From: Elusimicrobiota bacterium
GTDB taxonomy: Bacteria > Elusimicrobiota > Elusimicrobia > Elusimicrobiales > UBA9959
Direction of reading: 5' to 3'
Length of the DNA: 64,000 nucleotides
NCBI GenBank assembly: GCA_012517285.1
Contig: JAAYVG010000029.1
Coordinates: 2 to 64,001 of the forward strand
In this document: positions 3,222 through 64,000 of the stretch, piece by piece
How the letters are laid out: the number at the start of each line of letters is the position of its first letter
Position numbering within the stretch: position 1 is the stretch's first letter
Notes under the pieces: model-generated
Databases searched by the model: none
What the model saw: the letters and a program-made list of their open reading frames with translations, nothing else
Told to the model about the DNA's origin: nothing
Translations under genes and position numbers: made by a program

Positions 3222-4529
3222 ATGAGAAAAACATATTATGTCACTTTATCTTTGGTGAGTATTTTTTTATTTATTAATAAAGCTTATAGTGAGAGAAGCG
3301 AACGAAAAATAGATGTTAGAGCTCTCTCTGATGTGGAATCATATGATGAGCAAACACTCAATAATATATTTGATGGAAGCAATAAAAATTCAGTAAAAAT
3401 CTCTATTGATATCAGTAATAATTATTTTAATAAAACTTCACAAAACAACTATGGAATAAGCTATAATAAAAAAATCATACCAGAACCACTTATTAACAAT
3501 GTCACAGATGAAATACTATTACAATCCAAGGTCATTGTTAATGGGACTCCAGATGAGAAAGAGAAAAACATAATAGATAAAGCCTTTAATCTTATAAGGG
3601 ATTCCTCTGAAAACGGGAAAGAGTTGTATTCGTTAAAGGATAAGATACAAATACTCTGGAAGGATGGAGGAGAAAATCTAAGAGCTGAATCTACTCCTTC
3701 TACATCTTTTTTATTTTTTAAATCAGGTCCAAAAATAATGTTGAATGCCAAGTTTAAAGATGTCTATATGTCAAATCCTTCTGTTCCTGCATATTTAGCA
3801 ATAATTCTTGCCCATGAACTATCACATCACAAGGATTTCCAAGATGTAGGAAACACAAATAAAAATGTAGCTCTTAAATATATATCTGAGGAAAAAGCAT
3901 ATTTAACACAGATACAGACATATGAAGCTATGATTAAGAAATACCCTTATCTTTTTGATGAGTCAAAGATAAAGGATAAAAATATACTTGATTTTATCTC
4001 TGAACAAAGATTCTTTAAAGCTGTGTGGGATTATAAAAACAATGGAGGTAAAAAGATAAACAAATCTGATTTCCCATATATAAAAAACTTTAATGAAAAT
4101 TGGAATAAAGTTTTTAATTATGATAACGGTTATATAAAAGACTTAAACTTCAATCCATATACAGAATGGTTAGATTTCAGGGGAGTTTATTCATTCCATG
4201 GATTTATAAGTATAAGCTATAATATAAATGATAGAGATATCTATTATTCAGGGCTTAAGTATAAAAACATATCTGATAACTTTAATAAAATAAGAGATAG
4301 TGCAAAGATAGAATATAAAGAATACTGTAAGGATAGGAAGATAACACCGTTATCAGATGCTCATCTTGATAAAATACCTGATTCAATTGATTACTATTCT
4401 TTAGAGGATACTATTAATAATGCAGGTGAACATAGTGGTGAACATAATCATCATGGAGAAATAAATGTAACTCCTCCAGGTCCACCACCATATCCTCATG
4501 ATGCAGATGTAAACTGGGATGGACGTTGA
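3222..4529 (+). CDS. Secreted HExxH-motif protein (putative zinc metalloprotease-like), function unknown
   Basis: ATG at 3222 follows AGCAGGAG and gives a signal-like N-terminus (MRKTYYVTLSLVSIFLFINKAYS). HELSHH motif present. His/Pro-rich C-terminus. Track start 3108 lies inside the IS end and is rejected. Confidence 0.6.
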   Translation: MRKTYYVTLSLVSIFLFINKAYSERSERKIDVRALSDVESYDEQTLNNIFDGSNKNSVKISIDISNNYFNKTSQNNYGISYNKKIIPEPLINNVTDEILLQSKVIVNGTPDEKEKNIIDKAFNLIRDSSENGKELYSLKDKIQILWKDGGENLRAESTPSTSFLFFKSGPKIMLNAKFKDVYMSNPSVPAYLAIILAHELSHHKDFQDVGNTNKNVALKYISEEKAYLTQIQTYEAMIKKYPYLFDESKIKDKNILDFISEQRFFKAVWDYKNNGGKKINKSDFPYIKNFNENWNKVFNYDNGYIKDLNFNPYTEWLDFRGVYSFHGFISISYNINDRDIYYSGLKYKNISDNFNKIRDSAKIEYKEYCKDRKITPLSDAHLDKIPDSIDYYSLEDTINNAGEHSGEHNHHGEINVTPPGPPPYPHDADVNWDGR

Positions 4530-9299: not shown

Positions 9300-9356
9300 A
9301 TAGCCTCCAGGAAAACAGATGTCAGAAAACAGAAGTCAGAAAAAAGAAATCAGAAG

Positions 9357-10295
9357 TCAATGAATTCTGATTTCTTTTATTCTGATCTGATCATAATATT
9401 TTTTAATATCATTCTTACTGATAATTCCTGCACCTAACGTCTTACAATCAGATGATGCAAACGCTGTTGCAGTTGAAAGAGCTTTTTTAAAATTATAATT
9501 ATTAATCTGAGAATAAATAAACCCTGCCATAAATGAATCACCAGCTCCAACGCCTGAAACAAAATCATCTATTTTTGGTGGTAAAACCTCATAAAAGCAG
9601 TTATCATTTATTGCAAGAGATGGCTCCGGGCCATTTGTAACTATTAGTGTTTCAAGACCATTTTTTTTATATTTTATAAAAATCTTTTTTATGCTATCCT
9701 CTGAAATTTTCATCCCTGAGAAATCATAAAACTCCTTTGCATTTATTTTTACACAGTTAACGCCAGCTTCAAGGCAGGTTTTAAGTGACTCATCAGTGAG
9801 ATCAACAAATATCTTTTTATTATTTTTTTTAACCTCTGATATCAGTTTTCTGTAGAACTCTCCTTTTATGTTATATGGAGTCCTTCCAGAAATTGAAACG
9901 AGATCAGCTTTTTCTATAGTTTTTTTAAAAGCATCAAAAAATTTATTCTGAGAAGACCTGCTGATATATGCTCCCTCTTCATTTAAGTCAGTTGAAACAC
10001 CATTTTTATCTATAACACTAACACAGGTTCTGCTCTCATAATCATTCTGGTAAACAATTTTGCTTTTTAAACCTTCTTTTTTAATCAAACTCATAATAAA
10101 CCTTCCGCTATATCCCGAGCAGAATCCCATAAGCAAATAATCATCCATAAAAGACTTCAATGCTCTTGCAACATTAACACCCTTTCCACCAGCCAATACA
10201 AGATCAGGATTTTTTCTCGCAGTCATTCCATTAGTAAAATTAGGGATATAAAGCGTTTTATCAATTGCCATATTAAGATTTATTATAACTACCAT
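9357..10295 (-). CDS. PfkB-family sugar kinase (1-phosphofructokinase / tagatose-6-phosphate kinase-like)
   Basis: GGKGVNVARAL and GAGDSFMAGF motifs. Start chosen at M7 (MVVIINLNMAIDKT aligns with the usual N-terminus). Start is uncertain (10271, 10295 or 10313). Confidence 0.8.
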   Translation of the reverse strand: MVVIINLNMAIDKTLYIPNFTNGMTARKNPDLVLAGGKGVNVARALKSFMDDYLLMGFCSGYSGRFIMSLIKKEGLKSKIVYQNDYESRTCVSVIDKNGVSTDLNEEGAYISRSSQNKFFDAFKKTIEKADLVSISGRTPYNIKGEFYRKLISEVKKNNKKIFVDLTDESLKTCLEAGVNCVKINAKEFYDFSGMKISEDSIKKIFIKYKKNGLETLIVTNGPEPSLAINDNCFYEVLPPKIDDFVSGVGAGDSFMAGFIYSQINNYNFKKALSTATAFASSDCKTLGAGIISKNDIKKYYDQIRIKEIRIH

Positions 10296-10749: not shown

Positions 10750-11009
10750 AAACTGTTTTACATATACTTGTTGTAATAGTTACTGGGACTCTTTTTGGTA
10801 TGGTTATAAACAAGCTTGGGGCTATATGGTTTCCACAGACTGGAAATGTTCACTCAGTAATTTCGACGGCAATAAACACAGGTTTAAATCCTACCACAGT
10901 TGATTTGGGTGTCGTTCAATTTACCTTGGGGCTTATCTTTAAATTTGATACAGCAACAGTGTTGGGAATATTCATAGCAGCATTTGTTTACAAACAGCTT
11001 ATAAAATGA
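10746..11009 (+). CDS. Small membrane protein (DUF4321-like)
   Basis: 87 aa with two hydrophobic segments. Overlaps the cutA stop and the maf start by 4 nt each. The family name is from memory only. Confidence 0.5.
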   Translation: MKTVLHILVVIVTGTLFGMVINKLGAIWFPQTGNVHSVISTAINTGLNPTTVDLGVVQFTLGLIFKFDTATVLGIFIAAFVYKQLIK

Positions 11010-11596
11010 TATTCATCCTTGCATCTAAATCTCCGAGAAGAATAAAACTTTTGAAAGAAAACGGTTATAAATTTAAGATTATTCCATCAAACATAGCAGA
11101 AAAATCCGATTATAAAAGGCCTGATCTCCTTGTAAAGGATTTGGCATATAGGAAAGCACTTCAAGTTGCTCAGAAATATCCTTCATCAGTAATTCTTGCA
11201 GCAGATACAATAGTTTATTGCTGCAAAAAGATAATTGGTAAGCCCAAAAATTCAGATGATGCTTTAAGACTTTTAAGGCTTCAATCAGGAAGGTGGCAGT
11301 CAGTTTATACAGGAGTTGCTCTTATTTGTCTCAAAAAAAATATTTTTCTGTGTGATTATGAAAAATCTCGATGCTATATGAAAAAGATGACCACAGAAAG
11401 GCTTAAGGATATAGCATCAAAGCATTTGGACAAAGCAGGTGGATGGGCTGTTCAAGACAGAAATGATTACCTTATAACAAAAATAAAAGGCAGATATGAC
11501 AATATCGTTGGCCTTCCTATGAACCTTGTAAACAAGTTTTTTAAAGAATTTCAAAAGCTGAGAACAGATGACAGAATTAATGGAACTGTTAAATAG
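11006..11596 (+). CDS. maf: Maf-like nucleoside triphosphate pyrophosphatase
   Basis: ILASKSPRR N-terminus and conserved Maf core. The present stop TAG is formed by TA plus the first G of the adjoining element. Confidence 0.9.
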   Translation: MIFILASKSPRRIKLLKENGYKFKIIPSNIAEKSDYKRPDLLVKDLAYRKALQVAQKYPSSVILAADTIVYCCKKIIGKPKNSDDALRLLRLQSGRWQSVYTGVALICLKKNIFLCDYEKSRCYMKKMTTERLKDIASKHLDKAGGWAVQDRNDYLITKIKGRYDNIVGLPMNLVNKFFKEFQKLRTDDRINGTVK

Positions 11597-11869
11597 GGTT
11601 CACTGAAAAAGTATATTTGAGCAATAAAGCAATGATTTTCGTTATGAGGCGAAAAGACGAGCGAGCATACTACAAAGTAGTCTGTAAGCGAGTTCTGACG
11701 AAGCCGTAGTAGAAAAGCATTATCTTTATTGCCAAAAGAAAGACAAAAAAGTGCAAGGTTTTTGCAACATTACACTAAAAATCGTGCACTTTCAAAGCAA
11801 TAATCTACTATAATCAAGACAATTATTCATTGGAAAAATCATCTTTCGTTAGACTTTTTCAGTGAACCC
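11596..11869 (+). mobile_element. 274-bp miniature TIR element (family M2), TA-flanked
   Basis: Terminal inverted repeats GGGTTCACTGAAAAAG / CTTTTTCAGTGAACCC. TA on both sides (11594-95, 11870-71). A near-identical inverted copy is at 43861-44134. No ORF. Confidence 0.8.
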
Positions 11870-11898
11870 TAAATAATATAATTTGTTATAATTTGATT

Positions 11899-14382: not shown

Positions 14383-15612
14383 ATGGACAACAATTACATA
14401 CAGGGTGATATATTTAATTACACAGAAGAAAAAAAAGAAAAAGAGCCAGAACACTTTGAAACAAGATCAAAAAAGGATTTTTATTTCTCCTATTCAAAAT
14501 TTTCACTCTACTCAGAATGTCCCTTAAAGTATAGATTTAAATACATAGATAAGATACCTGAAAAACCGAAAGCATTTTTTTATTTAGGAAGAGTAGTTCA
14601 TTCTGTACTTGAATTTTTTTATTCAAGGGTTCCACCACCTGATATCACCGAGCTGATAAATTACTTAAAAACTGAGTGGGAAAGAATACCATTTGATCAA
14701 AGGGGATATGCAACCAAGGAAGCTGAGAATCTTGATATAAACAAGACAATTAATATAATAAAAAACTTTTATATAAAGCACAAGGATAATGATAAAATAC
14801 CATTTCTTCTTGAGTATAAAACATTTGTTCCTATAGATAATATAGTTGCTAATATTATAGCTGATAAAATAGAATACGAGGGCAACGGGAAAATATCAAT
14901 AGTTGATTATAAAACAGGTAGAGAAGGAAACAGGAACAATGATCAACTTTATTTTTATCAGAAGATCTCTGAGATAGATCCCCAGATGATTGAGAAAATC
15001 AATAAAAAATATAATGAAAATGTAAAAAGAGTTGAAGTAAATAAAATGGTATATTATTATGTTGAAAAATTGAAAACTGTTGAATTTTCAAGAGCAAATG
15101 ACACTGAAATAGAAAGATTCTGGGAAAGGGTTTTAATGACAGTAGAAAACATTCAATCAAAGAAATTTGAACCAAAGCCTACCGAAAAAAGCTGTTCATG
15201 GTGTGATTATAAACAGGTATGTCCTGTTTATAACGATAAAAAAACTAACTCATTGAGCGAGCTTACAACAGAATTCATAAAACTTAAAAATAATATAGAA
15301 GAGCTTGAAGACAAAAAGAAAAAAATAGAGAAAGAAATTATTTCAATGATGGGCGAAAATAATGAGTTGTATGACACATCGCTGAATCTTAAATTTGAAA
15401 AAAATATGAAGTATGAATTTAAAAGCACTGATGAACTTGTAGAAATATTAAAAGCTAACGATTTATATGAGAAAGTTTCAAGACCAACTGTGAGAGCAGT
15501 GTTGGAACTATTAAAAAGTGATGAGATCAATAGTCAGATAAAAGATAAAATAAAAAAACTATCGAACATATCCTATCAGATAGTTGTAAAGGAAGAAAAG
15601 CAGAAAGAATAA
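14383..15612 (+). CDS. PD-(D/E)XK nuclease, RecB/Cas4-like, with C-terminal Cys cluster and coiled-coil tail
   Basis: IVDYKTG and QLYFY motifs of RecB-family nucleases. N-terminal Cys (SECP) plus CSWCDYKQVCP, typical of Cas4/AddB Fe-S nucleases. K/E-rich helical C-terminal ~120 aa. Confidence 0.75.
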   Translation: MDNNYIQGDIFNYTEEKKEKEPEHFETRSKKDFYFSYSKFSLYSECPLKYRFKYIDKIPEKPKAFFYLGRVVHSVLEFFYSRVPPPDITELINYLKTEWERIPFDQRGYATKEAENLDINKTINIIKNFYIKHKDNDKIPFLLEYKTFVPIDNIVANIIADKIEYEGNGKISIVDYKTGREGNRNNDQLYFYQKISEIDPQMIEKINKKYNENVKRVEVNKMVYYYVEKLKTVEFSRANDTEIERFWERVLMTVENIQSKKFEPKPTEKSCSWCDYKQVCPVYNDKKTNSLSELTTEFIKLKNNIEELEDKKKKIEKEIISMMGENNELYDTSLNLKFEKNMKYEFKSTDELVEILKANDLYEKVSRPTVRAVLELLKSDEINSQIKDKIKKLSNISYQIVVKEEKQKE

Positions 15613-15796
15613 TTAGTTGTCTGGTTATCTGGTGGTTTAGTTGTTTAGAAAGAGCTATCCTTCTACCAATACCCCAATTATTAATCATCTACTTCTCCAT
15701 TTTTATAGGTCCTTTATCCTATATACAAACAAGTCCAATATCTCTTGTTTATTATAATTTATTGTTTTATAATTTATTTATATTAGGAGGAGTAGT

Positions 15797-17767: not shown

Positions 17768-17857
17768 ATTTAATCATCGAGATAAAAACAGATAAAAATC
17801 AAATGAAGACAGACAAATTAGTTATTTGGTCATTTGGTTGTTTAGTTATTTAGGAAG
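17768..17857. repeat. ~90-bp direct repeat, copy 1
   Basis: TTTAATCATCGAGATAAAAACAGATAAAAATCAAATGAAGACAGACAAATTAGTTATTTGGTCATTTGGTTGTTTAGTTATTTAGGAAG is repeated essentially identically at 18271-18359. Confidence 0.85.
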
Positions 17858-17956
17858 AAAGGGAAAATTAGTTATTTAGTCATCTCGTTATTTGGTTATT
17901 TAGCAAGAACAAATTCGTTGTTTAGAAAAACAATTTTATTATTTATTGTCTGATAT

Positions 17957-18102
17957 AAAAAATCGACAAAAAAAAGACGATCGTCTCAAAAATGTAAATT
18001 TTTAGTTTAAAATTAGTGTTAAAACTAAGTTTTCTCCTATGGGAATGTGTATATTTAAAAATCGACAAAAAAAAGACGATCGTCTTTTTTTTGTCGATTT
18101 TT
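17957..18102. repeat. Composite element: half palindrome, ~70-nt spacer, full 46-bp palindrome (family F)
   Basis: Aligns at roughly 90% by eye with 55929-56073 in the same orientation, including the spacer AAAAATGTAAATTTTTAGTTTAAAATTAGT.TTAAAA.TAAGTTTT. Confidence 0.8.
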
Positions 18103-18270
18103 GAAAAAAACTTAATGGAATTTGTTAACAATAATTAGAGCATACTCTAAAAGTTATCTGGTTGTTTAATCATCAGTATGTAATCATCAAGATAAAGACG
18201 GACTAATTAGTTATTTAGTTGTCTGGTTGTTTGGTTATTTAGGAAGAAAAAGAGGATAGTTGTCTGATTG

Positions 18271-18359
18271 TTTAATCATCGAGATAAAAACAGATAAAAA
18301 TCAAATGAAGACAGACAAATTAGTTATTTGGTCATTTGGTTGTTTAGTTATTTAGGAAG
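18271..18359. repeat. ~90-bp direct repeat, copy 2
   Basis: See 17768-17857. The two copies bracket the family F composite element just upstream of tRNA-His. Confidence 0.85.
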
Positions 18360-18474
18360 CAAGGATAAATTAATTGTTTAATCATTCAATTAGGTGCCTT
18401 TTTATTATTTTAATATATAATAATTTTATTACAACAACTATTCCTTTAATTTTGTAGAATATTATTATAAAGAT

Positions 18475-18548
18475 GGTGGCTGTAGCTCAATTGGTAGAGC
18501 ATCCGGTTGTGGCCCGGAAGGTCGCGGGTTCAAACCCCGTCAGCCACC
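18475..18548 (+). tRNA. tRNA-His (anticodon GTG) with encoded G-1
   Basis: Hand-folded: G-1 plus acceptor GTGGCTG/CAGCCAC, discriminator C, anticodon stem TCCGG/CCGGA with loop TTGTGGC, T arm GCGGG-TTCAAAC-CCCGT. Confidence 0.9.
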
Positions 18549-18733: not shown

Positions 18734-18765
18734 ATATTCTCTAATTCTGCAGAATTAGAGAATAT
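18734..18765. repeat. 32-bp palindrome ATATTCTCTAATTCTGCAGAATTAGAGAATAT (family I)
   Basis: Perfect dyad centred on CTGCAG. Second copy at 43211-43242. Confidence 0.85.
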
Positions 18766-19046
18766 TTAACATATGAAACGAGGGAAAAGTTTATAGAGAA
18801 TTTTTAAAGAATAGAGGTAAAATAGAGCAAATTTGAAAGGGTTAATGCGTTTTGTTTTAAAGAGAAATAAAAATTATATAATTTGATTAGGAATAGAATA
18901 ATAAGTGAATTGATTGCATAACCGTAACAATTTTAAGGGTAAACTTTTTATCAAAAAAGATATTTTTTGCTTTTTTATAAAAATTAATATTAACTTATTT
19001 TATATAATGATATTTGCTATATGAGAGTTATAAAGGTAGGAAAAGA

Positions 19047-19652
19047 ATGGCAATGATTCTAAAGGTTTTTATTATGAGCGGGATGATGGCGTTGGCTGAT
19101 GATGTTCTGATATCAACTCAGGATAATATTGTTCTCATTTCAAGTGAAACAGAAAGAGTTAGTGTTTCATTAAATACTTCAAATCAATTATTAAAGTTGG
19201 TTGATGATATTAAAAATCAAATATCTGGCAGAGAAATTTTAGATAATGATAGGAAACAGATTGAAGATATTTTAAGTGAAACTCAAAATAAGATTTCATA
19301 TGTTTTAAAGGAGAGTGGTGTTGAAAAAAAAGAAACAGATTACAATAAAGCTCTTATAAAGGTGAGAAAGGCACTGATGGATTATTTTATTAAGACCAAC
19401 AGGTATCCAAAAAATATTGAGGAGCTTGTCCCTTATTTTACTGATTTCATACCTGAGATAGATGTCCATAATGAGTTTAATTCAAGGATAAAGTATATAA
19501 GAACAAGGGATTTTGATAAGAATTATTCAAAGGCGGTGGATAACTCAAGCGAGTATCTCTATTTTGCTGATCCACAGTCTTTATACTGGGGACTTTTTAT
19601 AATTAATTCAAACAGAATGGATAAAAGTGGCACGGCTTTTTATGAATGGTAA
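19047..19652 (+). CDS. Secreted hypothetical protein
   Basis: ATG at 19047 gives a signal-like N-terminus (MAMILKVFIMSGMMALA). A weak resemblance of the C-terminal part to pseudopilin globular domains is not enough for a call. Confidence 0.5.
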   Translation: MAMILKVFIMSGMMALADDVLISTQDNIVLISSETERVSVSLNTSNQLLKLVDDIKNQISGREILDNDRKQIEDILSETQNKISYVLKESGVEKKETDYNKALIKVRKALMDYFIKTNRYPKNIEELVPYFTDFIPEIDVHNEFNSRIKYIRTRDFDKNYSKAVDNSSEYLYFADPQSLYWGLFIINSNRMDKSGTAFYEW

Positions 19653-22900: not shown

Positions 22901-23842
22901 ATGGATACTCAAAAACTTATAGAGATACAAAAATCAATATACAAAAAGATTAAGATAAAGCCATATAACAAGGAATTTAGAAAAATTCTTGCATTTGATA
23001 TATCTTTTGATAATGACGATGGATACTGTGTTGGGGTTATGCTTGATAGAGATTTTAAAATAATTGAGGAAAAATATACATTTGAAAGGGTAAGATTCCC
23101 ATATATTCTAGTGTAGTGTCCCTAATATTTCTTGATATTTGAAGGCTCAGATTTGAGATGGATACGAGGCGCGACGAACGAGCCCCGATTTATCGGGGTA
23201 AGCGAGAAGCAACGAAGTATGCGGCCAAAGATGAGCCTCCCCAAAGGGGCTGGCCACTTTTCGGCTGCGACTGCGTCACTCGTCGCTCATATAGTCCCAC
23301 TATATTCGCTCCTCGTTTCTTGTCTCGCCCGCCTGCCGAAGCCGCTTCGGCGTAGGCAGGCTCTAAAATTGGCCAGTCAAATGTAAAGAACTGTTAGGGA
23401 CACTACACTAGGATTTCTAATGTTCAGGGAGATGCCCTTGATATTAAAAACATATAAAAAATTTAGTAATAAACCGGATATAATCTTGATTGATGGTCAT
23501 GGAACACTTCATCCGAGGAGATGCGGGATAGCTGTGGCATTCGGGGTTAAGGTTAAGAAGCCAACCATAGGTGTTGCAAAGTCATTTTTATATGGTATAT
23601 ATGAAGAACCAGATAATAAAAAAAATTCATTCTCTTATGTATATGACAAGAATGGTGATAAGATAGGTGCTGTTTTAAGAACGAGAGAAAATACTAAACC
23701 TGTCTTTGTCTCTCCCGGAAATCTTATTGATATATCATCATCAATTAAAGCAGTTAAAAAACTAATCGGCAAATACAGAATAATAGAGCCACTTCGTATT
23801 GCCCATATAGAATCAAACAGGTTTAGAAAGGGATGTATTTAG
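22901..23842 (+). pseudogene. nfi: Endonuclease V gene interrupted by a 298-bp TIR element
   Basis: 22901-23110 encodes the N-terminal part (AFDISF...RFPYIL). 23411-23842 continues GFLMFREMP...DGHGTLHPRRCGIA..GVAKS. Removing 23111-23410 rejoins PYIL|GFLMFRE in frame. Confidence 0.85.
23111..23408 (+). mobile_element. 298-bp GC-rich miniature TIR element (family M1), TA-flanked
   Basis: TIRs GTGTAGTGTCCCTAA / TTAGGGACACTACAC. TA at 23109-10 and 23409-10. One interior line counts 63% G+C with multiple hairpins. Its internal ORFs are rejected. Confidence 0.8.
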
Positions 23843-37293: not shown

Positions 37294-37337
37294 ATAAATC
37301 TATTTTATCACATTTGAAAAGACTTATCAGAAAAAAA

Positions 37338-37380
37338 TCCTCCGGATAGTCAATATCAAATTTTGTTATAATCTTATTAT
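37338..37380 (+). promoter_or_regulatory. 43-bp direct repeat copy 1, containing an extended -10 promoter (TGTTATAAT)
   Basis: TCCTCCGGATAGTCAATATCAAATTTTGTTATAATCTTATTAT is identical at 38129-38171. Lies 33 nt upstream of the DUF3800 ATG. Confidence 0.6.
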
Positions 37381-38103: not shown

Positions 38104-38128
38104 ATATCCAAATACATTTTAGCAGAAA

Positions 38129-38171
38129 TCCTCCGGATAGTCAATATCAAATTTTGTTATAATCTTATTAT
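38129..38171 (+). promoter_or_regulatory. 43-bp direct repeat copy 2 (same extended -10 promoter), directly abutting the ATG of the PLD-like stub
   Basis: Identical to 37338-37380. Confidence 0.6.
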
Positions 38172-38412: not shown

Positions 38413-38616
38413 CCACACCGAAAGTAACCGCGTAGGTTACTTTGGTTTTAATTCTGATATGAGAAGGGGGAAACTGGTAAATGACATATTTTCATTTGTA
38501 TATTTTTCAGCCCTTTCACAAGCAATAGAAATATTATCACTCATATTTTTAACCCAATCTTCCCTTTCTAAAAAATTTTCATCAGTTGAATAGTCAGGGA
38601 TATATTTTTTTAAGTA
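38413..38616. repeat. ~204-bp direct repeat, copy A: orphan copy of the rloB 3' end plus its terminator hairpin
   Basis: Matches 43567-43769 with a single substitution that I could find (A/G at CACA[A/G]GCAAT). Identity collapses abruptly beyond 38616. Confidence 0.9.
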
Positions 38617-38689: not shown

Positions 38690-38905
38690 CATTCTAACGA
38701 CAGGTTAAGGTTAAGATTGAGGTCAAGAAGAAAACGACAAATCCCCATCAAAATAGCGAACAGAGGTCAGAAGTCAGAGGAGAGACAAATAGGGAATTTT
38801 CTTAAATTCTGTTTCGTGCTTTCTGTCTTCTGTCATCTGTTTTCTGACTTCTGTTTCCACTAAACAACCAGACAACTAAATAACCAGACAACTAATACGC
38901 TACTC
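38690..38905. repeat. Composite dispersed repeat (GTTAAGGTTAAG, CAGAAGTCAGAG and AACCAGACAACTAA words)
   Basis: Its reverse complement aligns along its length with 61855-62046, e.g. GGAAACAGAAGTCAGAA.ACAGA...GACAGAAAGCACGAAACAG.ATTTAAGAA and CTCAATCTTAACCTTAACCTG. Confidence 0.7.
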
Positions 38906-43210: not shown

Positions 43211-43242
43211 TTATTCTCTAATTCTGCAGAATTAGAGAATAA
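43211..43242. repeat. Second copy of the 32-bp CTGCAG-centred palindrome (family I)
   Basis: TTATTCTCTAATTCTGCAGAATTAGAGAATAA; compare 18734-18765. Confidence 0.85.
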
Positions 43243-43415: not shown

Positions 43416-43566
43416 AACTCTTCTCAAATTCCATACGATCGTGTCAGAATGAAGGAAAACTATTTTAAATTTTATATAAATTTTTTATGTATAAAGTCTA
43501 TATTTTATTTAAAAAATGCAGAAGTCGGGTCTGAATACAAAGTGGAGTTAGTAGATTAGCTGATCC

Positions 43567-43769
43567 CACACCGAAAGTAACCGCGTAGGTTACTTTGGTT
43601 TTAATTCTGATATGAGAAGGGGGAAACTGGTAAATGACATATTTTCATTTGTATATTTTTCAGCCCTTTCACAGGCAATAGAAATATTATCACTCATATT
43701 TTTAACCCAATCTTCCCTTTCTAAAAAATTTTCATCAGTTGAATAGTCAGGGATATATTTTTTTAAGTA
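43567..43769. repeat. ~204-bp direct repeat, copy B (in situ 3' end of rloB)
   Basis: See 38413-38616. Confidence 0.9.
43573..43599 (-). terminator. Hairpin CCAAAGTAACC-TACGC-GGTTACTTTCGG after the rloB stop (family G)
   Basis: Starts 9 nt beyond the stop codon on the minus strand. Same hairpin at 38419-38445 and 51755-51776. No clear U tract. Confidence 0.45.
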
Positions 43770-44444
43770 TTTTTTTAATTCGGTTGCAATAAATACCTTA
43801 TTTGTATCTTCAAAGTGTAATAAGAACCAGTATTCTATTGAAGGATTGCTTGTTATCGTGGGGCTCACTGAAAAAGTCTAACGAAAGATAATTTTCCAAA
43901 TGAATAGTTGTCTCGATTATAGTGTATTATTGCTTTAAAAGTGCACGATTTTTAAAGTAATGTTGCAAAACCCATGCATTTTTTTATCTTTCTTTTGGCA
44001 ATAAAGATAATGCTTTTCTACTACGGCTTCGTCAGAACTCGCTTACAGACTACTTTGTAGTATGCTCGGTCGTCTTTTCGCCTCATAACGAAAATCCTTG
44101 TTTTATTGCTCAAATAGACTTTTTCAGTGAACCCTAAACAGATTTTTATTTTTATTATTTTCTTTTAACTTTTTATAGCTGTCTAAATTATTTTCCACAT
44201 CTTTTATATAAAATGCGAGGTAGTCTCTACCTGATTCTGATATATCTTTTATTTTTCTTTTAATTTTTTTATACGAATTACCTATTCCAAAATCTGCTCT
44301 TTTTAAATGAATAGAAAAATTATCAGGATGATTTAGTTTTAATTTCATTAAATGTTTTAAATAAAAAAATTCAGTCAGTCCATCGCCGTAAAAATATAAA
44401 ACCTTTTTTAATATTCTATTCCCAGATTTTCTGTAATTAGTCAT
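43590..44444 (-). pseudogene. RloB-like protein gene interrupted by a 274-bp TIR element
   Basis: 44135-44444 is the N-terminal part. 43590-43858 is the C-terminal part with SNPSIEYWFLLHFE (RloB-like signature). Removing 43861-44134 plus one flanking dinucleotide rejoins KNLF|TITSNP in frame. Confidence 0.8.
43861..44134 (-). mobile_element. 274-bp miniature TIR element (family M2), inverted copy
   Basis: Same length as, and near-identical by eye to, the reverse complement of 11596-11869. Flanked by TA (44135-36) and TG (43859-60). Confidence 0.8.
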
Positions 44445-55696: not shown

Positions 55697-55928
55697 AACT
55701 CCTCCGACATAACATAAAATCTAAAAGAACCGTCCAATTCAATCCAGCTTAAGTTCTATGAAAAGTTTAATATACCTTTATTATATTTATAAGTGAAAAA
55801 AGACCTAAGGTCAATAGGATAAAGGGCCTATAATAAATATCAATACATTCGTAAACACAATTTAGCTATTTAGTTATCTGGTTGTCTGGTTATTTAGTAA
55901 GACAATTTTGTTATTTGTTATCTAATTT

Positions 55929-56073
55929 AAAAAATCGACAAAAAAAAGACGATTGTCCCAAAAATGTAAATTTTTAGTTTAAAATTAGTATTAAAATTAA
56001 GTTTTATCCTATGAAAATGTGCGTATTAAAAAATCGACAAAAAAAAGACGATCGTCTTTTTTTTGTCGATTTT
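55929..56073. repeat. Second copy of the family F composite element (half palindrome, spacer, full palindrome)
   Basis: See 17957-18102. Confidence 0.8.
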
Positions 56074-61854: not shown

Positions 61855-62046
61855 ACAGTTATCTATTTAGTTATCTGGTTGTCTAATGGAAACAGAAGTC
61901 AGAAGACAGAAGACGGAGGACAGAAAGCACGAAACAGGATTTAAGAAGTCAGAAGAATAAAAAGAAATCACTCTTTATCTGCTTTCTGTTTTCTTCTTAA
62001 CCTCAATCTTAACCTTAACCTGCAGTAATCTACGAGGTTACTTCTG
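61855..62046. repeat. Composite dispersed repeat, inverted relative of 38690-38905
   Basis: See 38690-38905. Ends with a family G variant hairpin, AGTAATCTACGAGGTTACT. Confidence 0.7.
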
Positions 62047-62251: not shown

Positions 62252-64000
62252 ATGGTTAGAAGGATATATTTATACATAAGCATTGTATTTACGATATTAT
62301 TTTTAACAGGTATTAACAAACTTTGGTCAGCACCAGATAAGACCATAGTATATCAGGGGACACTGAGGAAGGATGGCAAGGTAATTACTGGTAATGTTAA
62401 TATGGAGTTTAATATAGTGGATGGTAGTGGTAATGAATATTGGACGAGTGGCTCAACAGAGGTTTATGTTAACAGAGGTCTATTTAGATATCAGATAGGC
62501 ATAGATAACAAATCCCAATTTGACACCATACCATGGGGTGATATAACACCATACATAAGGGTAAAGATAACAGATGACGTGGTTGGAAATATTACATTTC
62601 CTGACGAAGGATTTAGCTGGACCCCATATGCTATGTATGCGGACAATATCGTTGGAGGAGCACTACTTAACTCCACCCAAACATTTACAGGGATAAACAC
62701 ATTTAACAATTTAGTTAACATAACTGGTGATTTAAATGTAGGAAATATTGTCATATCATCAGGTGGTTATATAACACTTGATAAATTAGATACAGCTCCA
62801 TCTGTTAGTAAAGGCAGGTTATATTTTGATTCAGCTGGTGCGTTAAAGATAAGTCTGGATGGGACAGATTATGTATCTGTTTCTACAAGCACAATCGCAT
62901 CTATAGTTAGTGATAGTCAACAATTTACTGGTGATGGTAGCCAGTCAAGTCCGCTTAGATTAAAGACTTCATCAGTAACATTACAGGGAAACATTTTCAA
63001 CGGTGCAGACCAGTTGGTTAAGCTGGACAGTACAGGCAAACTGCCTGCTGTGGATGGTTCATTGCTTACAAACATCAAGGCATCTGATCTAAATGAAAAT
63101 ATAATATACTCAACACATATACTGGATGGTCAGATAAAAGATGCTGATGTTTCATTGTCGACGGCTGCTATTATATCAGGTAAATTTGATGACAGTCGCA
63201 TAAACATAACTACGGGAGCTATTAGTTCAGGTAAATTTGGTGATAATCTCATATTGATAACGACGGGAGCGATAAGTGGTGGAATATTTGGTGACGATAG
63301 AATAGCAGTTAGCACAGGAGCTATTGTGAGCGGCAAATTTAGTGATGATAGGATTGCTATAAGCACAGAAGCGATAACGAGTGGAAAGTTCAATGACAAT
63401 AGAATATCTATAACAACAGGAGCAATAACCTCAGGGAGATTTGGAGATGATAGAATATTCATAACAACGAGAGCGATAAGTGGTCAGTGGGAGACAGATA
63501 GTATAAAAGATGAAGCGGTTACAGATAGTAAAATAGGATGGATGTCAGCCAGCAAACTGACAGGGACAATAGCGAACACATCATTAGACAATTCATCAGT
63601 AACATTACAGGGTAATGAATTTAATGTGGCGAACAAATTAGTGAAGCTTGATTCTGGAGGTAAACTGCCAGCTGTAGATGGTTCACAGCTTCAAAATATT
63701 GGAGCTGCAGGTATATCTGATAATAGCATTACGAGTGCAAAGATAGCTGATGATAGTATCATGGATATAGACATAAATTCAGCAGCAAGTATAACATATT
63801 CAAAACTAAGTATATCAGATGGAGATTTAACGATATCAAAGACGAGTGGATTACAGGGACAGTTAGATTTAATATCTACATCTACAAATAATTTACAAGG
63901 ACAAATAACTACATTAAATACATCAACTACAACACTAAGGACAGACTTAACGGAAGAAATAAACACAAGAGCATTACAAGTATCAGCTTTGGCAGATTCT
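62252..64000 (+). CDS. Large surface / tail-fibre-like repeat protein (5' part; runs off the window)
   Basis: Not in the supplied track. ATG at 62252 follows GGGAG. I translated 583 codons to the window end without a stop. Signal/TM N-terminus. Duplicated module SSVTLQGN.FN.A..LVKLDS.GKLPAVDGS. 17-aa tandem repeats. Confidence 0.8.
   Translation, partial: MVRRIYLYISIVFTILFLTGINKLWSAPDKTIVYQGTLRKDGKVITGNVNMEFNIVDGSGNEYWTSGSTEVYVNRGLFRYQIGIDNKSQFDTIPWGDITPYIRVKITDDVVGNITFPDEGFSWTPYAMYADNIVGGALLNSTQTFTGINTFNNLVNITGDLNVGNIVISSGGYITLDKLDTAPSVSKGRLYFDSAGALKISLDGTDYVSVSTSTIASIVSDSQQFTGDGSQSSPLRLKTSSVTLQGNIFNGADQLVKLDSTGKLPAVDGSLLTNIKASDLNENIIYSTHILDGQIKDADVSLSTAAIISGKFDDSRINITTGAISSGKFGDNLILITTGAISGGIFGDDRIAVSTGAIVSGKFSDDRIAISTEAITSGKFNDNRISITTGAITSGRFGDDRIFITTRAISGQWETDSIKDEAVTDSKIGWMSASKLTGTIANTSLDNSSVTLQGNEFNVANKLVKLDSGGKLPAVDGSQLQNIGAAGISDNSITSAKIADDSIMDIDINSAASITYSKLSISDGDLTISKTSGLQGQLDLISTSTNNLQGQITTLNTSTTTLRTDLTEEINTRALQVSALADS
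63158..63490 (+). repeat. In-frame tandem repeat, 51-bp (17-aa) unit, about 6.5 copies
   Basis: Units such as TTGAISSGKFGDNLILI, TTGAISGGIFGDDRIAV and STGAIVSGKFSDDRIAI. Explains the long antisense shadow ORF at 63130-63462. Confidence 0.8.

Follow-up and report, generated by a model that had tools for sequence, protein, structure and literature searches.

In a 64,000-nt stretch of contig JAAYVG010000029.1 from an Elusimicrobiota bacterium (assembly GCA_012517285.1; hereafter the window), two MITE families (miniature inverted-repeat transposable elements), M1 and M2, share a core of approximately 75 nt. The core comprises a closing stem (P1), a purine-rich 5′ strand CGAGGCGCGACGAGCGAG, a variable hairpin (P2) and a purine-rich 3′ strand UAAGCGAGGAGCAACGAAG, and it recurs in MITEs of at least seven phyla. 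The two purine-rich strands pair with each other in a rod of isolated G-C pairs and tandem G·A mismatches, a fold that is backed by covariation and that is open to one of the two DNA strands. We propose that the core, as a conserved fold-back module acting in cis, forms the apex of non-autonomous DDE transposons that make up an old superfamily spread over many phyla, a reading to which we give a probability of roughly 0.45.

The M1 and M2 elements and their shared core

The M2 family is represented by two copies in the window, M2a and M2b (Table 1), and by at least 14 in metagenome Ga0302250, whose M2 copies probably belong to the window's own population. M2a ends in perfect 17-nt terminal inverted repeats (TIRs) of sequence GGGTTCACTGAAAAAGT (17/17) and is flanked on both sides by the direct repeat TAAATA (11590–11595 and 11870–11875); its insertion point is the stop codon of maf (11006–11596). 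M2b likewise adjoins a stop codon, that of the minus-strand open reading frame (ORF) 44124–44444. The copies in Ga0302250 are flanked by A/T-rich duplications of 6–7 bp (TAAATA, TATTTA, TACTTA and TATAATA). As a separate observation, the 6–7 bp repeats of the M2 family begin and end with TA (loci L060, L061, L068, L072, L077, L090 and L097, and the window), and other copies show TA alone; such a variable duplication length is unusual among MITEs.

M1 has TIRs of sequence (TA)GTGTAGTGTCCCTAA (17/17 nt) and a TA duplication (23109–23110 and 23409–23410) in a CTAG target, with flanks CTA-...-TAG. It interrupts a gene for endonuclease V. Removal of M1 together with one TA rebuilds a 213-residue protein that is 96% identical to a 213-residue endonuclease V of Elusimicrobiales. 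The intact gene lies in locus L103 (GCA_018000795.1), which is syntenic with, and 95–99% identical to, the window at 19.6–33.7 kb. M1 is missing from this locus, otherwise 98–99% identical, and the empty site reads ATATTTCAGGATTT where the window has ATATTC-TA-(M1)-TA-GGATTT. Because of this intact, 96% identical orthologue, the insertion is considered recent and probably inactivates nfi. M1 and M2 are thus MITEs that have been mobile recently. The window elements measure 274–300 bp, and the sole ORF in them is a spurious one of 84 residues that spans M1. All three copies are sense-oriented beside or within genes and are, on that account, probably co-transcribed.

Within the window, the gapped pattern CGAGC-N8-25-GTAAGCGAG occurs only in M2a, M2b and M1, against an expectation of zero from 100 shuffles; GTAAGCGAG taken by itself, with at most one mismatch, gives 13 matches where 3.9 are expected. 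A plain local alignment of M2 with M1 is marginal, with a score of 37–40 (shuffles: mean 25, s.d. 4.2, maximum 40), so it is the block structure, together with the copies outside the window, that makes the case for homology. M1 carries, in addition to module A, a diverged second copy on the opposite strand, module B, with a third type of hairpin (ATATAGTGGGACTATAT). An initial annotation of this DNA had proposed a core common to two otherwise different families. The M2 and M1 core sequences that it quoted were located at the coordinates that it gave for them and share their block pattern beyond shuffles, and the difference in ends holds as well, in that M2 and M1 follow different end and target rules.

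Table 1 Coordinates of the M1 and M2 elements, their modules and the interrupted gene. R1 is the covariance model of the core.
Feature	Position	Strand	Remarks
MITE M2a	11596–11869	+	TIRs 11596–11612 and 11853–11869
M2a core	11639–11716	+	R1 56.8 bits, E 4e-14; fold
M2a 5′ purine strand	11647–11665		P1 lies on either side of the strands and P2
M2a P2	11666–11684		CATACTACAAAGTAGTCTG
M2a 3′ strand	11685–11703		TAAGCGAGTTCTGACGAAG
MITE M2b	43861–44136	−	93–95% identity to M2a
M2b core	44014–44091	−	R1 48.5 bits, E 1e-11
MITE M1	23111–23408	+	Imperfect palindrome carrying two modules
M1 core module A	23154–23230	+	R1 69.6 bits, E 7e-18
M1 module A 5′ strand	23165–23182
M1 module A P2	23183–23198		CCCCGATTTATCGGGG
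M1 module A 3′ strand	23199–23217
M1 core module B	23258–23333	−	R1 47.2 bits, E 3e-11; absent from the training set
Endonuclease V, N-terminal part	22901–23110	+	70 codons, ending ...RFPYIL, cut by M1
Endonuclease V, C-terminal part	23411–23842	+	143 codons; matches Pfam Endonuclease_5 positions 70–197

Distribution of the module

A scan of 185,579 species genomes with the pattern CGAGC-N8-25-GTAAGCGAG-N5-ACGAAG returned 59 loci, about 48 of which hold the full module and about 11 of which are chance matches within ordinary sequence; the similarity noticed in the initial annotation thus extends far past the two families of the window. The hosts belong to Planctomycetota, Elusimicrobiota, Myxococcota/delta-proteobacteria, Verrucomicrobiota, Acidobacteriota, Clostridia and Actinomycetota (Solirubrobacterales), at least seven phyla, and the loci frequently come as multiple copies per genome and frequently lie at contig ends. 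A second scan, of metagenomes, was restricted to variants whose first N5 position is a pyrimidine and matched the M2 family and related families.

The core has the consensus CGAGGCGCGACGAGCG(A/C)G - C-A-x-x...x-x-U-G - UAAGCGAGGAGCAACGAAG, and around it lies a complementary stem that differs by family. Its position is the apex of hairpin-shaped MITEs of 155–315 bp, each family of which has its own TIRs. M1 and most other families show a TA or TNA duplication in CTAG/CTNAG-like targets. In the loci that were fetched, model R1 detected 108 modules, including 30 without the search pattern. Most of these 30 are the B modules of two-module elements of 280–300 bp in Elusimicrobia and other lineages, with the consensus CAAGGAAC-GAG-GAGCG-AGC-(P2)-GUGAGCGACGAGCGACGCAG, in which G-C pairs again alternate with tandem G·A mismatches. 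The two-module elements carry one purine-rich module on each strand, in M1 each with a different P2.

All-against-all BLAST of the flanking ORFs and Pfam scans revealed no recurrent neighbour gene and no transposase near the cores, the neighbours being housekeeping genes only. Viral contigs held no copy of the module, plasmids and E. coli genomes gave no match with the core, M1 or M2, and a literature search on the core, TIR and motif strings returned unrelated primers only. The module is a conserved transposon part that has apparently gone undescribed so far.

One locus departs from this arrangement. In L007 (positions 3660–4042), a metagenome-assembled genome of Clostridia from sheep colon, one strand bears a tandem series of four core modules, its units measuring about 105 nt and each beginning with CTTTTTCTTTTTAGAGGCG; TIRs are lacking, and the module has thus been amplified in a different mode.

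The core might instead be a very small mobile or invasive unit in its own right, one that inserts at the apex of palindromes and hence turns up in MITEs with different ends. The same core does occur in elements with three kinds of target-site duplication (TA, TNA and 6–7 bp), and the tandem cores of L007 do without TIRs. However, no family member with an empty apex was found, the extra copies retrieved by their TIRs all hold a core, if a mutated one, and the core itself lacks ends, duplications and coding capacity. We regard this explanation as very improbable.

Fold and covariation

The rod is numbered along the purine strands, read outward from the C-G pair that closes P2, and gives way to P1 after position 17. 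Positions 1–4 are G·U, A·A, G·A and C-G; positions 5–8 are G-C, A·G, G·A and C-G; positions 9–12 are A·G, G·A, C-G and G-C; and positions 13–17 are C·A, G·A, G-C, A·G and G·A. The rod therefore presents isolated G-C pairs with tandem G·A mismatches between them, all in a 5′-CGAG-3′ context. Positions 9 and 10 hold Watson–Crick or wobble pairs instead in L007 (G-C, G-C), L016 (G-C, C-G) and L062 (G-C, A-U), and likewise in the L063 family (G-C, U-A), in L079 (G·U and G-C; five consecutive pairs) and in M2 of the window (A-U, G·U).

In an alignment of 31 sequences, 78.6% of the cells assigned to P1, rod and P2 are paired, compared with 20–36% when the partners are slid by 1–3 columns, and the covariation score is 0.414 compared with at most 0.104 in the slid controls; none of 500 shuffles reaches the observed values. 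The model-fitted alignment of 87 sequences gives 79.5% paired cells and a covariation score of 0.495. Both alignments strongly support the fold, in line with the structured core that the initial annotation had suspected. RNAfold independently gives this rod as the structure of lowest energy for the canonical core, and the complementary strand is without stable structure; the fold is strand-specific because the pyrimidine strand cannot form the rod.

These data bear on the idea that the core is a double-stranded DNA site for a host or transposon protein of bending or architectural kind, which would aid synapsis of the ends of a very short element. Such a site could explain why the core is central and its sequence conserved across phyla; GCGAG/CGAG units are repeated in direct orientation on either side of P2, and the IHF site of Correia elements offers a precedent (PMC2229807). 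Yet covariation within P2 and between the purine strands is not expected of a duplex site, and the freedom of P2 in length and sequence shifts the spacing and helical phase of the half sites. A duplex site is, in our judgement, quite improbable.

Exchange of the hairpin P2

P2 is CAUACUACAAAGUAGUCUG in M2 and CCCCGAUUUAUCGGGG in M1, two unrelated sequences on the same closing C-G pair. The base of the hairpin is conserved (C-G, A-U, often a U·C mismatch, then A-U), and above it P2 is free, with stems of 5–8 pairs and arbitrary loops of 3–6 nt. The M2 copies of Ga0302250 carry as P2 either CATACTACAAAGTAGTCTG or the M1-type CCCCGATATATCGGGG, the rest of the element being M2, and their further polymorphisms in the 5′ strand are common to both hairpin types. 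The structure-preserving replacement of the hairpin that had been noticed between the two families is thus real, and it has also taken place inside the M2 family. Its simplest reading would be short-patch exchange between co-resident families across identical flanks (...CGAGC and GTAAGCGAG...). P2 would be exchanged freely, by this route among others, because under our proposal it need only be a helix.

Exchange of this kind is also what would be seen if the core had no function and owed its uniformity to recent horizontal spread and homogenization by gene conversion or template switching, its hairpins having been perfected by palindrome-correcting replication errors. The neutral-looking decay within families and the symmetry of the mismatch types fit this account. 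It is at odds with four observations: TIRs, arms and P1 have diverged fully between phyla and the core is still about 90–100% identical; A and B modules are both kept in several two-module lineages; the non-Watson–Crick G·A pairs persist and have not been ‘corrected’; and the substitutions from G·A to Watson–Crick pairs hold the pairing register. Absence of function is accordingly judged improbable.

An RNA gene or a part of the element

The initial annotation had suggested a functional RNA as the cargo of the elements and had held that the conserved blocks are not neutral filler. The second point stands, as the core, unlike TIRs and arms, is near base-for-base the same across seven or more phyla. 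The first divides: a structured module is upheld by the covariation, and an RNA gene is not, in view of the lack of an Rfam match, promoter, terminator or orientation bias. The Rfam comparison that the annotation had recommended, made with Rfam 15, yielded no family for M1, for M2 or for the canonical cores, be it at the gathering thresholds or at E ≤ 10; the best hit, group-II-D1D4-1, reached about 16 bits against a gathering score of 35, in M2 only. No convincing promoter or terminator was found in or around the elements. In tandem-gene contexts, the module strand is co-oriented with the genes in 13 cases and opposed in 14, and further loci lie in 14 convergent and 7 divergent contexts. Relative to the local GC skew, the two orientations number 25 and 28, which is no bias. 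Inside three large families, polymorphism is as high in the core as in the arms, and single insertions therefore seem to decay neutrally.

A structured RNA with a function of its own, carried by MITEs, is nevertheless an alternative that has to be weighed; it could be a protein-binding sponge, a signal for mRNA stability or processing such as ERIC is reported to be, or even an aptamer or a small ribozyme. The purine strands hold Shine–Dalgarno-like GAGG/GGAG and A-R-N triplets, and a conserved purine internal loop between two variable helices has the look of such RNAs. The covariation backs a folded single strand, the fold is strand-specific, and the three copies in the window, sense-oriented at genes, are probably co-transcribed. 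In the Clostridia genome, one strand bears four tandem modules that lack TIRs. The purine-rich strand of ERIC matches the Rfam small-RNA families V_AS5 and Ysr49 with E-values down to 1e-8, so that relatives are regarded as RNAs, and ERIC reportedly influences the decay of mRNA by way of RNase E (PMC2229807, PMC10969869). Set against this are the absence of an Rfam match, promoter or terminator for the module, the lack of gene-orientation bias over all loci, the absence of extra conservation of the core within families, P2 loops that are mostly arbitrary (3–4 nt) and not GNRA or UNCG, and G·U pairs that are not favoured over A·C. An RNA of this kind seems to us unlikely.

The same observations (no Rfam match, promoter or orientation bias, the polymorphism within families and the parity of G·U) indicate that conservation arises in the lineage of active elements and not at each insertion. 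Two constraints fit conservation at that level: the module could be a part that the transposon needs itself, or a part that makes insertions tolerable. Because the rod is strand-specific and two-module elements offer it on either strand, the single-stranded form appears to matter; a folded single strand is indicated, with which RNA and single-stranded DNA are alike compatible. The module has the appearance of an inherent and ancestral component of a MITE superfamily, with selection acting on how the element propagates, and not that of a passenger RNA gene.

Several known motifs were compared with the core and rejected. A match of M2 to the group II intron family RF01998 (16.3 bits; gathering score 35; E 0.5–1) has no counterpart in M1 and is attributed to chance. 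On inspection, a hammerhead-like CUGANGA in M2 is missing from M1 and from the canonical cores, and a kink-turn does not agree with strands of equal length and no conserved 3-nt bulge. Likenesses to UAA/GAN, SRP, 5S loop E, boxA and retron msr motifs do not hold across families and have no support in Rfam; opposite UAA, for example, GAG becomes GCG. H-DNA or a mirror repeat was rejected, the purine strands being about one-third C and hence not homopurine. Protein coding was rejected in view of changes in P2 length that are not multiples of 3 and of the presence of stops. The Chunjie MITE, A+T-rich and with 9-bp direct repeats, is a different element.

Relation to ERIC and other known elements

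The closest known relative in architecture and motif is ERIC (ERIC/IRU/RU-1 elements), which is probably a distant branch of the module superfamily and whose membership in it is unproven. ERIC is a TA-flanked, MITE-like imperfect palindrome of about 127 bp with TIRs and a target-site duplication (PMC2229807, PMC3184786), and its description is limited to Enterobacteriaceae and Vibrionaceae (PMC10969869). According to reviews, no parent insertion sequence (IS) of ERIC is known, and mRNA decay by RNase E is affected by ERIC in a manner that depends on its orientation (PMC2229807, PMC3184786, PMC10969869). Like the elements described here, it forms one long hairpin with A-G mispairs (table note in PMC2229807; fold compared in this work), in which a closing stem is followed by a purine-rich 5′ strand (GGCGGCGAG.GAGCGA), a hairpin and a 3′ strand GTGAGCGAG...CAACGCA. 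Seven copies from Enterobacterales yield the consensus GGCGGCGAG.GAGCGAAT-(hairpin)-GTGAGCGAG.GCAGCCAACGCA, the 5′ strand of which falls on the core GCGACGAGCGAGC in a global alignment. The ERIC 3′ strand GTGAGCGAACGCAAACGCAG scores 17.4 bits on the matrix of the core 3′ strand, which exceeds all of 5000 shuffles and any unascertained site among 1.47 million positions of real sequence, and model R1 aligns five of the seven copies full-length and in register (9–14 bits). ERIC differs in its central hairpin, which is much longer and itself conserved (CCCCAG...CTGGGG, inner CTTAC/GTAAG) where P2 of the module is short and variable, and in host range, as the module is found in at least seven other phyla. 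Two Rfam families, RF02818 (V_AS5, Vibrio RNA AS5) and RF02766 (Ysr49, Yersinia sRNA 49), appear to be ERIC copies because ERIC elements (L102 and L104–L108, from E. coli, Pantoea, Klebsiella, Lelliottia and Rahnella) match both, with scores below the gathering scores; the matches to V_AS5 have E-values of 1e-8 to 0.06.

MITEs of the IS5 family resemble the module-bearing elements in their TIRs, of GGGCTCGT...AAATAA / GAGCCTGTTT.AAAA type, and in their flanks, which are C-TAA...TAA-G or C-TTA...TTA-G in most families and CTA-...-TAG for M1. CTAG/CTNAG-type TA/TNA flanks are found in families from Planctomycetota, Verrucomicrobiota, Acidobacteriota and Elusimicrobiota and in the JA2 families. 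The 6–7 bp A/T-rich duplications of M2 do not fit the IS5 type, and we know of no conserved apical module described for IS5-family MITEs.

The Correia/NEMIS elements of Neisseria are likewise hairpin MITEs with a TA duplication and a central functional motif, an IHF site, and their transcripts are processed by RNase III (PMC2229807, PMC10969869). They have no sequence relation to the module, however, and are restricted to one genus; the motif at their centre is an AT-rich site for a protein on duplex DNA and not a covarying GA-rich fold. REP/BIME sequences (REPIN, mobilized by RAYT) are short, GC-rich extragenic hairpins that are sometimes arranged in tandem, as the modules of L007 are, but they measure 20–40 bp, bear a GTAG or CGTC tag (PMC3733652) and lack TIRs and target-site duplications. 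The module, in contrast, sits in elements that have both and shows no tag at the foot of its hairpin.

Proposed role of the module

In the reading that we favour, the purine-rich strand, when single-stranded, would fold into the closing stem P1 of variable sequence, the rod and then a P2 of arbitrary sequence, and elements of about 280–300 bp such as M1 would present one such module per strand. The module would serve as a folding nucleus in cis whenever the element is single-stranded, be it in a read-through transcript, for which ERIC is the precedent, or as a template at the replication fork, and would zip both arms into a single long hairpin with the paired TIRs at its end. What keeps the module would then be selection on the lineage of elements, for mobility or for the tolerability of its insertions, and selection on each inserted copy would not be involved. 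The data show the identity as MITEs, the recent mobility, the conservation across phyla, the fold with its covariation and the strand asymmetry; that the fold is what is selected, that it acts in cis and how it benefits the element are inferred.

Several points weigh against this proposal. We know of no need for a single-stranded fold-back in cut-and-paste DDE transposition. Physical chemistry alone explains a near-identical sequence across phyla weakly, and a conserved binding partner may exist. In P1, G·U does not exceed A·C (37 versus 50 cells; 20 versus 26 at the level of families), a shortfall that is atypical for a strand-specific RNA helix, and as a strand test these counts are uninformative; the covariation of P1 could in part be a by-product of the palindromic build of the elements. 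The assignment to IS5-type elements (IS427/IS1031-type) draws on a resemblance in TIR type, TA/TNA duplication and target to what ISfinder gives for these subgroups. The autonomous partner transposase whose existence the initial annotation had raised did not appear in the DNA examined: no autonomous IS with matching TIRs was found in the window or in about 520 kb of loci. As for ERIC, its pairwise alignments with the core are not significant (z ≤ 2.6), an ERIC-only covariance model (R2) places M2a no higher than third among its hits in the window, with 13.2 bits and E 0.36, and does not detect M1, and V_AS5 and Ysr49 do not match M1, M2 or the canonical cores at E ≤ 10 or E ≤ 1.

A different interpretation holds that the hairpin, which may be called a GA-zipper, is a new, phylum-spanning class of structured nucleic-acid motif with a specific and universally conserved partner or activity, and that ERIC is its enterobacterial form. 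The partner could be a host protein or a transposition cofactor that reads the tandem-G·A rod, or the hairpin could itself be a catalytic or ligand-binding RNA. We hold this to be unlikely; if true, it would explain the mobilization or tolerance of the whole superfamily, including the 35-year-old puzzle of ERIC.

In MITEs the middle normally drifts, whereas here it is the best conserved part and the ends diverge with their hosts. Near-identity over seven phyla points to shared descent or constraint, with a function tied either to a highly conserved partner or to a strict physical need, a helix open to one strand only. The G·A rod, P1 and P2 offer concrete, mutable targets for asking why bacterial MITEs succeed, and ERIC, widely used for typing yet functionally unexplained, may join a much larger family. 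The covariance model also flags repeats that break assemblies in metagenome-assembled genomes, many copies being located at contig ends.

Other repeats in the window

Degenerate tandem runs resembling 8-mers occupy many intergenic spacers (TTAGTTAT/TTGGTCAT..., and AAACAGAAGTCAGAA... on the other strand), at 1726–1791, 15598–15655, 17803–17910, 18192–18362, 55847–55904 and 61859–61884, and also at 9313–9359, 38799–38882 and 61864–61947; they are reminiscent of short tandemly repeated repetitive sequences. A perfect palindrome of 46 nt, AAAAATCGACAAAAAAAAGACGATCGTCTTTTTTTTGTCGATTTTT, occurs five times (1790–1836, 17957–18002, 18056–18101, 55929–55974 and 56028–56073). It may represent a terminator-like repeat that acts in both directions, or else a further small mobile element, and it is also matched as a plain hairpin by generic covariance-model searches. 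A second perfect palindrome, of 30 nt (TATTCTCTAATTCTGCAGAATTAGAGAATA), is found at 18735–18764 and 43212–43241.

A 204-nt repeat (38413–38616 and 43566–43769) and a 46-nt repeat (37335–37380 and 38126–38171) are each present in copies of 100% identity, which suggests very recent duplication or another repeat family near M2b. At 63128–63484, a tandem array with a period of 51 nt, composed of 5–7 units that are 63–75% identical, overlaps a minus-strand ORF of 110 residues. Finally, a strain-specific indel lies beside the tRNA at 18476–18548, where approximately 0.7 kb of the window (18893–19593) corresponds to approximately 6 kb in L103 (441–6643) with ORFs of 1401 and 614 residues.

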